A stretch of DNA of 64,000 nt. It comes from Escherichia virus TH42. The stretch lies in sequence record MT446413.1; one strand, 5' to 3'. Shown here piece by piece: positions 31,984 through 52,309 of this stretch. Position numbers and translations under genes: made by a program. The notes below the pieces were generated by a model. That model was not told where the DNA came from, did no database searches, and saw nothing but the letters and a program-made list of their open reading frames with translations. The stretch's first letter is position 1. Every line of letters starts with the position of its first letter.

Positions 31984-32202
31984 ATGAAATTAATGAAACA
32001 AATCACATATGGACTGGCTTGCTTAGGTACCGGTTTTGTAGTATCTACAGCAATCCCTGTTAGTGCTGTCAGCTCCCATTCAGTTATTGAAGCTCCAGTA
32101 GAAAAACTTAGCGCTGAATGTAAGCAAAGAACTATCCAGAATAATCTCGTAGTTATTTGTCCAGATGCCCAATCTTCAGCGTTGAGAAAAGTTCTACCTT
32201 GA
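31984..32202 (+). CDS. small membrane protein, holin candidate (72 aa)
   Basis: Strong RBS, one hydrophobic segment, immediately upstream of lysozyme gene. Confidence 0.35.
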   Translation: MKLMKQITYGLACLGTGFVVSTAIPVSAVSSHSVIEAPVEKLSAECKQRTIQNNLVVICPDAQSSALRKVLP

Positions 32203-32230: not shown

Positions 32231-32722
32231 ATGGACGCTATCGCATTGCCACCTGTACAGCATAATTTAAGTCCTGAGGGTTTGGAGTTCATTATGAAGC
32301 ATGAAGGTATGAGAACCCGTGCTTATCAAGACTCCGCTGGCATATGGACTATATGTGTCGGAGCAACGCGCGATATGAATGGGTATCCAGTCAGAAAAGG
32401 ATTAACGTATTCTATAGAGGATTGTTTGATATTACTAGATCGTGACACTCAAGACTCTGTTCGTGCTACTCAGAAAAATATAAGGGTTCCTTTGTTTACT
32501 AATGAGTTTGATGCTTTAACCTCTTTCAACTTTAATGTTGGTGGTACAGCTCTCGCTACTTCTAAACTAAGGAAAGTGATCAACGGAGATGTTAGAGGTG
32601 ATGTTTACTCTGAGTTTTTGCGTTGGGATAAAATAACAGTCAGAGGTGTAAAACAACAGAGTCCGGGACTTCACAACCGAAGGGTTGCAGAAGCAGACCT
32701 ATACACCACAGGTAAATACTAA
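32231..32722 (+). CDS. lysozyme (GH24, T4-lysozyme-like)
   Basis: HEGMRTRAYQDSAGIWTICVGAT matches the E...D...T catalytic-region pattern of lambda R / T4 e-type lysozymes. Confidence 0.8.
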   Translation: MDAIALPPVQHNLSPEGLEFIMKHEGMRTRAYQDSAGIWTICVGATRDMNGYPVRKGLTYSIEDCLILLDRDTQDSVRATQKNIRVPLFTNEFDALTSFNFNVGGTALATSKLRKVINGDVRGDVYSEFLRWDKITVRGVKQQSPGLHNRRVAEADLYTTGKY

Positions 32723-50726: not shown

Positions 50727-50951
50727 TTAAACTACACAGAACAAATACATTGCTGTGTCAGGACAAGGGATGGCTGTCTGAATACCACTTACCTTAATCC
50801 ACATATCTTCTTCAGGGTCGTAATAGGCCCAATAGGATTGATCTCCATCTACAAAGAATTTAAAAGTTCGTCCCCAAACCTGATTATTATATTCCCATAC
50901 TGCATGAAGTTGAGTAACACCTTCTGGTATTGTAAGTTCCGCTCTGATCAT
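50727..50951 (-). CDS. hypothetical protein (74 aa)
   Basis: Track ORF; 4-nt overlap with upstream gene. Confidence 0.4.
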   Translation of the reverse strand: MIRAELTIPEGVTQLHAVWEYNNQVWGRTFKFFVDGDQSYWAYYDPEEDMWIKVSGIQTAIPCPDTAMYLFCVV

Positions 50952-51208
50952 TGTATTCCTCTCTCCTTGAGAGCTTTCAGTAAACCATTATGGTTAGCAG
51001 CACAGGTTGTGTAGTTGTCCTGATACCACTCTAATGTTGTTGCAAATGCCGCTCCCTGTGCACTCTGAAGCAAAGGGAGATCAACATCACACTCAGCTTT
51101 TAGGTTTGTTGGTAAGGGCATTAGCTGCCTGCTGTTGTCGCTCGTTGAACAAGCTGACATACTCATCGCTAGCGCACACATTGTAAAAAACTGGCTTAGT
51201 CTTCTCAT
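50948..51208 (-). CDS. outer-membrane spanin (Rz1-like lipoprotein), putative
   Basis: ATG at 51208; signal peptide with Cys at position 20 (MSAC), Pro-rich mature part; start lies inside the i-spanin gene in another frame. Confidence 0.45.
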   Translation of the reverse strand: MRRLSQFFTMCALAMSMSACSTSDNSRQLMPLPTNLKAECDVDLPLLQSAQGAAFATTLEWYQDNYTTCAANHNGLLKALKERGIQ

Positions 51209-51440
51209 AATGCATCTCTTTGTAAACAGTTTCCGTGTTCTTCTTCCAGTTAGTTAAACTGGTTAGAACTTTCTTAGCTACTTCATCAGCAGCCTTAGCT
51301 CTCTCAATCTCAATCTCTTGTTGTTTCTTCTCTTGGTCAAGAGTGTTACTATCATTTCGATATTGTTCAAACTTCATTCCGCCAAAGAATACAAGAGCTG
51401 TAAAGACTAAGAAGCCGATATTGTTTTGAAGCTTTTCCAT
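51093..51440 (-). CDS. inner-membrane spanin (Rz-like), putative
   Basis: Track ORF starts at a GTG (51464) inside the upstream terminator; the ATG at 51440 with GGAG RBS is the likely start; N-terminal TM segment then coiled-coil. Confidence 0.5.
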   Translation of the reverse strand: MEKLQNNIGFLVFTALVFFGGMKFEQYRNDSNTLDQEKKQQEIEIERAKAADEVAKKVLTSLTNWKKNTETVYKEMHYEKTKPVFYNVCASDEYVSLFNERQQQAANALTNKPKS

Positions 51441-51452
51441 TTTAACTCCAAC

Positions 51453-51476
51453 GAAAAAAGCCACCCGAAGGTGGCT
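51453..51476 (-). terminator. rho-independent terminator
   Basis: Perfect AGCCACC-CGAA-GGTGGCT hairpin with A6 on plus strand; between SSB-like gene and i-spanin. Confidence 0.7.
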
Positions 51477-51499
51477 AAGCTATTACAAGGAGAGATTCA

Positions 51500-52240
51500 T
51501 TAGAAAGGGCTGTCATCTTCTTCAAAGGTAGATTGAGGCTCTTCATTAATAGTAGGGATACTTGGAGTCGCGTCTTTCTGTTCAGTGTCAGAAGCGCGAG
51601 TAACTTCACGACCAGCCAGAGGGATGTTTTTAGCATCATTAGCTTGGGTCAGAAGGTTACGTTGGAATGGAAACATAGCTTGATAAGCAGCCAAGTTAGC
51701 GTCAGTTTCAGCATACGGTTCGAAGAAGATCAACTCACTACGAGGAGCACCTACAGCATCACGATACTTAGTTGGGATTGGAGTGATGCTCTTGATAGAG
51801 TTTTTCTTCTCACCAGCTTTGTTGGTGTAAGAGTTAACCAGAATGTTGACAGGCTGACCAAGCAGCATATCTTTGAACCAACCCAAATCACCTTTCAGTG
51901 CTTGAACACTTGGGTCGATCATTTTAATTAGGTTCAGAATACCAGAGTTCTTAGCTCGTGGGTTTACATCGAAGGATTTAAACTGACAAGCAGGACGTGG
52001 GTCCAATGCCTTACCATCATTATCTGTACCAGTTGCGTCAACACCAATCAGTTCAAATGCCAAGTCCATACGGAAAGCTGGGTTCTTAGGAGTAACTGCT
52101 TTGGTCTTAGGGTCAATCCAAGGGTCACGATTGTGAACACCTAAACCTACTACACGAACAATGCGTGCTTCGTACTCGCCATCAGGGATTACATCGTAGT
52201 TGGATTTACGGGATACAGACAGTTCAGGGATCATAGACAT
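51500..52240 (-). CDS. single-stranded DNA-binding protein (putative)
   Basis: 246 aa ending in acidic tail EEDDSPF, like the SSB C-terminal motif DDDIPF; call rests mainly on this tail. Confidence 0.45.
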   Translation of the reverse strand: MSMIPELSVSRKSNYDVIPDGEYEARIVRVVGLGVHNRDPWIDPKTKAVTPKNPAFRMDLAFELIGVDATGTDNDGKALDPRPACQFKSFDVNPRAKNSGILNLIKMIDPSVQALKGDLGWFKDMLLGQPVNILVNSYTNKAGEKKNSIKSITPIPTKYRDAVGAPRSELIFFEPYAETDANLAAYQAMFPFQRNLLTQANDAKNIPLAGREVTRASDTEQKDATPSIPTINEEPQSTFEEDDSPF

Positions 52241-52301
52241 ATTAATATTTCCTTATATAAATTTAAGATTGTTGCTCTCTTTGAGCGGTTGGTATACTAT
52301 A

Positions 52302-52309
52302 TACATTAC
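52302..52309 (-). promoter_or_regulatory. GTAATGTA motif (candidate promoter element)
   Basis: Minus-sense motif 62 nt upstream of the SSB-like gene ATG; same 10-mer ATACATTACA at 10991-11000. Confidence 0.25.

Follow-up and report, generated by a model that had tools for sequence, protein, structure and literature searches.

Overlapped genes in the phiEco32-like Escherichia virus TH42 very probably encode a two-component spanin

The window analyzed here, a 64,000-nt stretch of DNA from Escherichia virus TH42 (sequence record MT446413.1), belongs to a phiEco32-like (Gordonclarkvirinae) E. coli podophage, a kuravirus. A preliminary description made from the sequence alone proposed an overlapped spanin pair on the minus strand, and all of its coordinates proved correct on re-check. 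The locus DNA is 98.8% identical to that of Bas88 and TH34 and 88-94% identical to that of ECBP2, IME267, and SU7. Records of these relatives label the i-gene 'Rz-like spanin', and SU7 labels the o-gene 'O-spanin'. The features discussed below are:

31984..32202, plus strand: holin gene, late operon (phrog_11161 holin, E=5e-39; Bas88 annotation)
32231..32722, plus strand: endolysin gene (phrog_7 endolysin, E=6e-45; Bas88 annotation)
50948..51208, minus strand: putative o-spanin gene, 86 aa (phrog_2425 match, curated ECBP2 and NJ01 orthologues, lipoprotein pattern)
51093..51208, minus strand: 116-bp dual-coding overlap; one frame gives the i-spanin C-terminus (…FYNVCASDEYVSLFNERQQQAANALTNKPKS), the other the signal peptide, lipobox, and first mature residues of the o-spanin
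51093..51440, minus strand: putative i-spanin gene, 115 aa, ATG start (PHROG 1152 match, identity to ECBP2, codon-position diversity)
51149..51160, minus strand: lipobox codons ATG TCA GCT TGT (M-S-A-C), o-spanin residues 17-20
51216..51219, minus strand: weak SD-like AGAG of the o-spanin, 7 nt 5' of its ATG and within the i-spanin CDS
51375..51419, minus strand: codons of the predicted transmembrane hydrophobic core, i-spanin residues 8-22, IGFLVFTALVFFGGM (Kyte-Doolittle 2.23 over 15 residues)
51446..51449, minus strand: Shine-Dalgarno GGAG of the i-spanin, 5-nt spacer to ATG 51440, marked as SD in entries of the spanin database
51454..51476, minus strand: intrinsic terminator with a 7-bp stem, UUCG loop, and T-run (terminator scan and fold; annotated in phage 4E8)
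52298..52309, minus strand: candidate phage-sigma (gp36-type) middle-promoter motif gTAATGTATATA, ~60 nt 5' of a 246-aa gene (motif search)

The i-protein matches PHROG 1152 'Rz-like spanin' (E=3e-36) and is 93% identical to the curated i-spanin of ECBP2; a single-protein scan for loci gave 6 loci only. Its sequence suggests a short cytoplasmic N-terminus, a single transmembrane (TM) segment, and a helical, highly charged periplasmic domain. We assessed the TM segment by a Kyte-Doolittle hydropathy scan, in which residues 4-22, all uncharged, form the sole hydrophobic segment; the maximum over 19 residues is a modest 1.41 because the hydrophobic core is short. The Sergei homologue carries the annotation 'TMD (7-29) N in, C out'. 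Charged residues make up ~33% of the periplasmic part, whose single Cys, C88, is invariant in 12/12 genomes. A single-sequence AlphaFold2 model (mean pLDDT 79) places helices at residues 2-75, 82-89, and 92-110. Scan and model together describe a small protein with one N-terminal TM segment and a charged, largely helical periplasmic domain, the predicted makeup of an i-spanin under the definitions of overlapped two-component spanins by Summer et al. 2007 and Kongari et al. 2018, which we adopted. Of the 'TM-plus-coiled-coil protein' initially described, the one TM segment stands, whereas the coiled coil is unproven, AlphaFold2 giving long helices alone; entries of the spanin database predict a coiled coil for the ECBP2 orthologue and none for phiEco32 or KBNP1711 (PMC6139136).

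The o-protein matches phrog_2425 (E=2e-24), labeled 'unknown function' in PHROGs, and, weakly, phrog_456, an Rz-like spanin family. Its N-terminus comprises MRR, a hydrophobic stretch, and MSAC with Cys20, from which we predict an SPII-type signal peptide with the lipobox MSA|C, Ser at +2, and a 67-aa mature part. The lipoprotein rule applied, a PROSITE-type pattern, was {DERK}(6)-[LIVMFWSTAG](2)-[LIVMFYSTAGCQ]-[AGS]-C, with the Cys at 15-35 and K or R within the first 7 residues; the o-protein satisfies it at Cys20. By this PROSITE-type rule it is a small protein with an SPII signal, a lipobox Cys, and no Asp at +2, as predicted for an o-spanin sorted to the outer membrane. Its AlphaFold2 model is of low confidence (pLDDT 56). 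In the 12 genomes C20, C41, and C69 are invariant and Cys11 varies (C/S/F), so that, in addition to the lipidated C20, the o-spanin would present C41 and C69 in the periplasm and the i-spanin C88.

The MSAC lipobox, at first considered weak, is in fact an accepted one: the spanin database has this box, TMSA|C, for NJ01, besides NLSA|C, and the ECBP2 o-spanin orthologue was checked there by LipoP (PMC6139136); relatives carry the variants LSAC, MSSC, TSAC, and TSSC at the same invariant Cys. The original characterization of the ORF as signal-peptide/Cys/Pro-rich holds for the signal peptide and the lipobox Cys but not for proline, the 67 mature residues containing 3 Pro and 3 Cys. AGAG is invariant in the 12 relatives and is marked as the SD in the database entries for the ECBP2 and NJ01 o-spanins (PMC6139136).

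The two genes share DNA in different frames. As the preliminary description had it, the o-ORF begins within the i-gene (start 51208) and continues past its stop, ending at 50948; its frame is offset by one base from the i-spanin frame, and it runs 145 bp beyond the i-gene stop. Both ORFs are intact in 12/12 genomes at a DNA divergence of ~20%, with an o-ORF of always 86 aa. Codon-position diversity in these genomes is 0.13/0.07/0.30 for the i frame of the i-only part and 0.18/0.03/0.39 for the o frame of the o-only part; the overlap, at 0.06/0.04/0.16, is about half as diverse as either flank. Judged by these codon-position signatures and the halved diversity of the overlap, both reading frames are under selection. 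The pair exceeds chance, since the ORFs are intact in 12 genomes and each frame bears a coding signature. Gene anatomy, homology to curated spanins, two-frame selection, and the signal and lipobox features are established by the analysis.

Three relatives, SU7, Bas86, and EK010, carry an HNH endonuclease gene inside the spanin overlap, and a 31-bp duplication keeps each frame on a separate copy. The i-side copy in SU7 and Bas86 has only changes that are synonymous in the i frame, and the Cys codon is lost. Their o-side copy retains ACSTSDNSRQ behind an unrelated new N-terminus, a basic-hydrophobic signal ending in LMAC; the new signal of the EK010 o-spanin ends in LSAC. These HNH-split relatives are a clean natural demonstration that both overlap frames are functional. 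Annotated as a two-piece 'join', the Bas86 i-spanin would imply a self-splicing intron at the HNH insertion, which we rejected: an Rfam scan of three HNH-split loci at E<=1 returned no match, and the 31-bp duplication together with the new o-spanin N-terminus explains the arrangement without splicing.

A mechanical ORF call, 51093..51464 on the minus strand, begins at GTG 51464-51462, with ATG 51440 in frame. The GTG lies in the 3' arm of the terminator (AGCCACC-TTCG-GGTGGCT plus T-run), which separates the upstream 246-aa gene from the spanins, ends 13 nt 5' of the i-spanin ATG, and is near-invariant (pi=0.018, 12 genomes). The SD of the ATG, at 51449-51446, reads GGAG in 11/12 relatives and GGGG in 1/12. 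ATG 51440 is the homologous start in the GenBank CDSs of Bas88, SU7, and 4E8, and the i-spanin entries for ECBP2, KBNP1711, and NJ01 place a homologous ATG behind GGAG/GAGG (Kongari et al. 2018, PMC6139136). We conclude from these comparisons that i-spanin translation initiates at ATG 51440 behind GGAG and not at the GTG in the terminator stem, in agreement with the preliminary description on the start, the position of the GTG in the hairpin, and the ribosome-binding site. In one fold, AGCUU 5' of the terminator stem pairs with GGAG; this candidate was rejected, as it contains two G-U pairs and lacks covariation among relatives, and the fold of the terminator/i-spanin start region is weak (z=-1.95). 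Because the pairing is weak and non-covarying, no translational masking is claimed.

The spanin pair lies ~19 kb from the holin and endolysin genes, on the opposite strand, in a cluster of replication and transcription genes; the linkage to holin and endolysin that is usual but not obligatory for spanins is absent from the TH42 window. The middle-promoter consensus, tAATGTATAtA, and the assignment of 'middle genes' come from the SU10 paper (PMC4281155). Since the number of such motifs in the window (5 found, 2.8 expected) is not above chance, the assignment of the motif at 52298..52309 rests on its position; this motif likely drives a transcript that must cross the terminator to reach the spanins. 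The interval from the terminator to the i-spanin start codon yielded no promoter, and a sigma-70 promoter scan around the spanin genes remained at background level (10 found, 7.0±2.6 expected). The location of the pair just 3' of a near-invariant terminator therefore points to expression that is probably modest and by read-through.

In kuraviruses and Felix O1-type phages, all spanin pairs that are unlinked to holin and endolysin have a UUCG-loop terminator immediately upstream, whereas homologous pairs within classical lysis cassettes are without one. The stem sequences differ between the kuravirus and Felix O1-type terminators. Common descent of a larger block, considered as the source of the shared terminator, was rejected because the spanin-flanking genes of the two groups are not homologous. 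We raise, with more doubt than confidence, the possibility that the terminator just before the i-spanin start (12-25 nt) is a conserved dosage control and not an incidental operon boundary. If this were true, terminator read-through would set spanin synthesis in these phages.

Three other readings of the locus were weighed. Translation of the i-spanin from GTG 51464 would give a 123-aa protein with the N-terminal extension MAFFVGVK and a longer hydrophobic N-terminus, and the GTG is in frame with the ATG, with no intervening stop, in 12/12 kuravirus genomes. Yet this GTG has no upstream SD and sits within a stable GC hairpin, in its 3' arm; from GTG to ATG, variation among the 12 genomes is confined to bases that would encode V-K versus D-N; phiEa21-4 and fjerdesal (Ounavirinae) have an in-frame TAA immediately 5' of the homologous ATG; and the ATG is the start in the curated database as well as in the records of Bas88, SU7, and 4E8. 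Conservation of the GTG region is attributable to the terminator, T-run, and SD rather than to coding. We thus consider the GTG an improbable i-spanin start; a minor longer isoform may be made from it. The 86-aa o-ORF, in turn, could be accidental, with nothing expressed in its place or only the shorter downstream ORFs of many GenBank records, which have 41 or 57 aa and lack a signal peptide. Many records do hold a truncated 'hypothetical protein' (126 nt in Bas88; 174 nt in 4E8, Bas94, SU10, and XT32), PHROGs assigns phrog_2425 no function, and the AGAG is a weak SD, but Kongari et al. 2018 (PMC6139136) state that overlapped o-spanins are systematically overlooked or cut short by gene callers. 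An accidental ORF would hardly keep its 86-codon frame, ATG, basic N-terminus M-[RK]-[RK]-L, and Cys20 in 12/12 kuraviruses and in homologues at 30-60% identity, halve the nucleotide diversity within the overlap, or, where the HNH insertion removed the original N-terminus, acquire a new signal peptide with a lipobox. This reading is extremely improbable.

The pair might also be a membrane protein and a lipoprotein with a role other than lysis, e.g. superinfection exclusion or receptor blocking as with other phage lipoproteins, which would suit its place among middle genes beside a sigma factor, flanked by replication and transcription genes, and behind a terminator, with the lysis genes 19 kb away on the other strand. 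However, in Sergei, ESSI2_ev129, and a Proteus phage, homologues of both proteins directly follow holin and endolysin; the near-identical Bas88 genome has no other annotated spanin candidate; and obligatory pairing and overlap of both genes are typical of spanins. Unlinked spanin genes are known in T4, whose lysis genes are scattered. T4 represents the separated type in Fig. 1b of Kongari et al. 2018 (PMC6139136). All this makes a role outside lysis very unlikely. With homology, layout, and context as its basis, the assignment of the region as a two-component spanin of a phiEco32-like E. coli podophage with an overlapped gene layout is one in which we have high confidence, and the overlapped pair originally proposed gains support from the PHROG 1152 match and from curated overlapped orthologues with a 116-bp overlap.

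For this two-component spanin we infer the following membrane topology, complex formation, outer-membrane disruption, and read-through route of expression. The pair, situated in the middle-gene cluster, would be expressed modestly, probably via terminator read-through, with the i-spanin (51440->51093, 115 aa) translated from ATG 51440 behind GGAG. Its N-terminus would anchor it in the inner membrane and its helical, charged domain would extend into the periplasm. The o-spanin (51208->50948, 86 aa) would be exported and enter the lipoprotein pathway, with lipidation at Cys20 and signal peptidase II cleavage; Ser at +2 would direct it to the outer membrane, where it would reside in the inner leaflet. 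The periplasmic domains of the two proteins may then bind each other and bridge the periplasm, the conserved cysteines probably serving intermolecular disulfides. After holin and endolysin have removed the peptidoglycan, the spanin complex would fuse or disrupt the outer membrane and complete lysis.

The pair would complete the lysis set of this phage: holin, endolysin, and spanins. Its value as a discovery is small; it illustrates an annotation problem that recurs. Since gene callers avoid overlaps and phrog_2425 carries no functional label in PHROGs, most GenBank records give the o-spanin of this family in truncated form or as 'hypothetical'. A mechanical ORF call, moreover, sets the i-spanin start inside the terminator. 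For the curation of phage-therapy genomes, the correct calls are 51093-51440 for the i-spanin and 50948-51208 for the o-spanin.

Lambda Rz1 is a proline-rich, mostly unstructured protein, and the lambda spanin genes lie directly after S and R. The TH42 pair resembles lambda Rz/Rz1 in its presumed job and in its two parts, an inner-membrane protein with a helical periplasmic domain and a lipoprotein of the outer membrane, for which a single stretch of DNA is read in two frames. The gene for lambda Rz1 is nested entirely within Rz, whereas the TH42 o-gene extends 145 bp beyond the i-gene stop; unlike Rz1, the mature TH42 o-spanin contains 3 Pro among its 67 residues and has a largely helical predicted structure, and holin and endolysin are 19 kb off. 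Neither protein had a Pfam or NCBIfam match above threshold, and sequence searches against solved structures found no relative of either. As neither protein has a Pfam match, the pair is Rz/Rz1-like in function and layout only: the preliminary description applied 'Rz/Rz1-type' to the layout, which does not extend to sequence homology, and the traits of the lambda Rz/Rz1 family (Pfam match, embedded o-gene, proline-rich lipoprotein) are absent.

A homing endonuclease between the spanin genes, as in SU7, Bas86, and EK010, has a precedent in T5 versus Shivani/phiR201, where a GIY-YIG homing endonuclease converted an overlapped into a separated pair (Kongari et al. 2018, Fig. 6, PMC6139136). There, too, changes in the i-spanin are confined to the extreme C-terminus and those in the o-spanin to the signal sequence. 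SU7, Bas86, and EK010 differ in that the endonuclease is of the HNH type and the 31-bp overlap duplication is visible. The TH42 window itself has the uninterrupted overlapped form.

The spanin pairs of Felix O1-type phages (Ounavirinae; e.g. phiEa21-4 gp12/gp13, fjerdesal) are a further related system. Their i-spanins are likewise of the JH2 family, which in the spanin database includes Felix01, WV8, and Mushroom. At ~27-33% identity they conserve the overlapped layout and the motif PVFxNxC..D.Y..FNE and, like the kuravirus pairs, they are unlinked from the lysis cassette and have a UUCG-loop terminator hairpin just 5' of the i-spanin start. Their o-spanins differ: divergence is greater (34% identity or none detectable), and the database assigns them to a separate group. 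The genes on either side also show no relation. More generally, the layout, the lipobox, and the motifs PVFxNxC..D.Y...FNE and C-A-x-x-[HY]-N-G-L are preserved in distant homologues of 30-50% identity.

The nearest known systems are orthologous. The spanin pair is already catalogued and not new: its orthologues are curated by Kongari et al. 2018 in their spanin database (PMC6139136), whose entries place ECBP2, KBNP1711, NJ01, and phiEco32 in the overlapped class, with the i-spanin family 'JH2' and an o-spanin group of their own, and whose overlap table gives 116 bp for ECBP2, KBNP1711, and phiEco32. Together with the PHROG 1152 match, orthology to these four entries makes the TH42 pair a member of the curated spanin family. 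The TH42 i-spanin is 77-93% identical to those of the phiEco32-like curated pairs (ECBP2/KBNP135, KBNP1711, NJ01, phiEco32). In their entries the ECBP2 and NJ01 o-spanins have 86 aa, with a 19-aa signal and a 67-aa mature part, and the same start as in the TH42 window, and the NJ01 lipobox, MSAC with Cys20, is identical. The TH42 pair shows no substantive difference from these curated pairs, from which a few amino-acid substitutions set it apart.

The two overlapping reading frames described preliminarily as a spanin pair lie on the minus strand, close to a predicted terminator:

51093-51464, minus strand: ORF starting at GTG, 123 aa (mechanical ORF list)
50948-51208, minus strand: ORF starting at ATG, 86 aa (mechanical ORF list)
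51454-51476, minus strand: terminator-like hairpin (51476..51459) with T-run (terminator scan)

The 86-aa ORF, encoding the outer-membrane lipoprotein (o-spanin), starts within the longer ORF at a one-base frame offset, shares 116 bp with it and runs 145 bp beyond the stop of the inner-membrane spanin (i-spanin), confirming the overlapped layout. The surrounding 1.2 kb share 98.8% identity with Escherichia phages StefiGeyer_Bas88 and TH34 and 88-94% with ECBP2, IME267, SU7 and others; these relatives are phiEco32-like podophages (kuraviruses) of the Gordonclarkvirinae. Their records annotate the 115-aa gene as 'Rz-like spanin', and the downstream gene is 'O-spanin' in SU7. A 74-aa gene at 50727-50951 (minus strand; PHROG 30479, labelled unknown function) overlaps the o-spanin stop via ATGA, which suggests translational coupling; other kuraviruses have unrelated genes in its place: SU10 encodes an Appr-1-p processing (macro-domain) protein there, and EK010 has an NrdA-like ORF.

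The 115-aa protein matches PHROG 1152 'Rz-like spanin' (3e-36), and the 86-aa protein matches the unlabelled phrog_2425 (2e-24) and, weakly, phrog_456 'Rz-like spanin'; searches of Pfam, NCBIfam and PDB sequences returned no match for either, and the pair is not related in sequence to lambda Rz/Rz1. The o-spanin family that pairs with PHROG 1152 is phrog_2425, which PHROGs v4 labels 'unknown function'. Because this family is unlabelled and gene callers avoid overlaps, most relatives' GenBank records cut the o-spanin gene short or label it hypothetical, leaving a shortened 'hypothetical protein' of 41 or 57 aa. The i-spanin has a single hydrophobic segment, whose core is IGFLVFTALVFFGGM; its periplasmic part contains 33% charged residues and one Cys. 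Its single-sequence AlphaFold2 model (pLDDT 79) contains helices 2-75, 82-89 and 92-110. The o-spanin N-terminus, MRRLSQFFTMCALAMSMSA followed by C-S, conforms to the PROSITE-type rule for lipoproteins: Cys is at position 20, Ser is at +2, and K/R occurs among residues 1-7. Mature o-spanin comprises 67 residues, of which 3 are Cys and 3 are Pro; the earlier description as Pro-rich was therefore wrong. AlphaFold2 modelled it with low confidence (pLDDT 56).

Two start codons could be considered for the i-spanin. The sequence upstream of its ORF reads TAA-TGAATCTCTCCTTGTAATAGCTT-AGCCACC-TTCG-GGTGGCT-TTTTT-CGTT-GGAG-TTAAA-ATG. As noted preliminarily, the GTG at 51464-51462 falls inside the hairpin, more exactly in its 3' arm; it lacks a Shine-Dalgarno sequence (SD), whereas the ATG at 51440 follows GGAG (51449-51446) at a distance of 5 nt. 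The GTG is in frame with the ATG; the hairpin-to-SD stretch is nearly invariant in 12 kuraviruses (pi 0.018 for the terminator), so the fact that it stays in frame is no sign of coding. The sole variable bases, directly 5' of the ATG, would read V-K or D-N. The homologous ATG of phiEa21-4 and fjerdesal has an in-frame TAA right before it. These observations, together with published curation, argue that ATG 51440, the start favored preliminarily, is very probably the correct one. Since ORF coordinates, hairpin, GGAG-ATG arrangement and overlap all check out, the initial observation was accurate. Between the stop of the upstream 246-aa gene and the terminator, a motif CTCTCCTTGT[A/T]ATAG (51480-51495, minus strand) is present in 12/12 kuraviruses; its CUCUCC is complementary to an SD-like GGAGAG.

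The overlapped spanins catalogued by Kongari et al. (2018; PMC6139136) include those of ECBP2, KBNP1711, NJ01 and PhiEco32, whose i-spanins are entered as family 'JH2', shared with Felix O1-type phages, and whose o-spanins form a separate group of their own. Supplementary entries list the ECBP2 i-spanin (MEKLQNNIGF…, 115 aa) with its SD marked in gtggcttttttcgttGAGGTtaaa, the ECBP2 o-spanin (MKRLSQFFTMCVLAMNLSA-CSTSDNS…) as 86 aa with a 19-aa signal and a 67-aa mature part, an overlap of 116 bp in ECBP2, KBNP1711 and phiEco32, and an NJ01 lipobox, TMSA-C, identical to that in the window. The same source states that overlapped o-spanins are generally missed by gene callers and that the o-spanin start was moved to obtain a LipoP signal. 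Both the overlapped pair and the ATG correction agree with this curation of orthologues. The spanin pair is a real feature, correctly interpreted at the outset, and is already known through its orthologues in the catalogue.

We built an alignment of the region for 12 kuravirus genomes (about 80-99% DNA identity) and calculated mean pairwise diversity by codon position. Both ORFs are intact in all 12. The lipobox varies (MSAC, LSAC, MSSC, TSAC, TSSC) around an invariant Cys20; Cys11 is variable, and no substitution occurs at C41 or C69 of the o-spanin or at C88 of the i-spanin.

Mean pairwise diversity at codon positions 1/2/3 in 12 kuraviruses
i-spanin-only part, i frame: 0.13/0.07/0.30
o-spanin-only part, o frame: 0.18/0.03/0.39
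overlap, i frame: 0.06/0.04/0.16

The overlap shows about half the diversity of each flank, as dual coding predicts. The most variable overlap position, i-frame position 3, equals o-frame position 2 and falls in the substitution-tolerant o-spanin signal peptide.

Three relatives carry an HNH endonuclease gene within the overlap, at a site matching window 51124-51154 (coordinates of the respective loci):

L002:2147-2722: HNH insertion, SU7
L016:874-1449: HNH insertion, Bas86
L017:953-1450: HNH insertion, EK010

With this homing-endonuclease gene inserted, the two spanin genes no longer overlap and form a separated pair. A 31-bp stretch of the overlap (window 51154..51124) is duplicated in SU7 and Bas86 and flanks an insert of ~514 bp, and each copy maintains just one of the two frames. 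Relative to the right copy, the left carries i-frame third-position changes (AAC>AAT, GAG>GAA, CAA>CAG, CAG>CAA twice, GCT>GCG) that retain LFNERQQQAA; its o-frame is destroyed and the Cys codon gone. The right copy retains A-C-S-T-S-D-N-S-R-Q. The o-spanin has acquired a new, unrelated N-terminus, MLTKKKQKSCLVIFLASSLMA-C, in SU7 and Bas86, where the new signal peptide with lipobox overlaps the 3' end of the HNH gene, and a new signal ending …KKKLLSCTGILLAFSLSA-C in EK010. The signal-plus-lipobox was therefore re-created once the original had been cut off. In the Bas86 record the i-spanin appears as a join of two pieces across the insert, and an Rfam scan of the three insertions matched no intron model. 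T5 versus Shivani (Kongari et al., PMC6139136) is a parallel case, but the endonuclease there is GIY-YIG.

The spanin genes lie ~19 kb from the other lysis genes, among 'middle' genes immediately upstream of the phage sigma-factor gene:

31984-32202, strand opposite to the spanins: holin, late operon
32231-32722, strand opposite to the spanins: endolysin, late operon

A tblastn search recovered 171 phage records with the o-spanin and 416 with the i-spanin. Salmonella phage Sergei carries, in this order, genes for endolysin, holin/antiholin, i-spanin ('TMD 7-29, N in, C out') and o-spanin ('SPII cleavage at 19-20'); in ESSI2_ev129 the pair directly follows holin and endolysin, and one Proteus phage shows phrog_126 holin, phrog_465 endolysin, PHROG 1152 and phrog_2425. 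All these distant homologues retain the lipobox, the i-spanin motif PVFxNxC..D.Y..FNE and the o-spanin motif C-A-x-x-[HY]-N-G-L.

The terminator ends 13 nt 5' of the i-spanin ATG, and a scan between the two revealed no convincing promoter; terminator read-through would therefore be the simplest route to spanin expression. Farther upstream, gTAATGTATATA at 52309-52298 (minus strand), within an AT-rich intergenic region of 320 bp and ~60 nt 5' of the 246-aa gene, matches the phiEco32 gp36-dependent middle/late promoter consensus (PMC4281155, PMC12276001); the number of such motifs in the window does not exceed the chance expectation. The 246-aa gene itself (51500-52240, minus strand; PHROG 6599, labelled function unknown) encodes a protein that ends in acidic residues, …STFEEDDSPF, much as single-stranded-DNA-binding proteins do, and weakly matches an NCBIfam phage replication-initiation family (1.2e-5, below cut-off).

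A GC hairpin capped by a UUCG loop and followed by a T-run lies 12-25 nt 5' of the i-spanin start in kuraviruses and two Ounavirinae genera:

window 51454-51476: UUCG hairpin and T-run
L018:446-465: the same element in phiEa21-4
L021:523-545: the same element in fjerdesal

It is absent from homologous pairs embedded in cassettes after holin and endolysin. This distribution, seen in few lineages, is suggestive of conserved read-through control, in which the upstream terminator may set spanin dosage. In the Felix O1-type homologues, which share the UUCG hairpin and T-run right before the i-spanin start, the stems have other sequences (GGCTCC/GGAGCC and GGACTC/GAGTCC), and the genes on either side bear no relation to those of kuraviruses.
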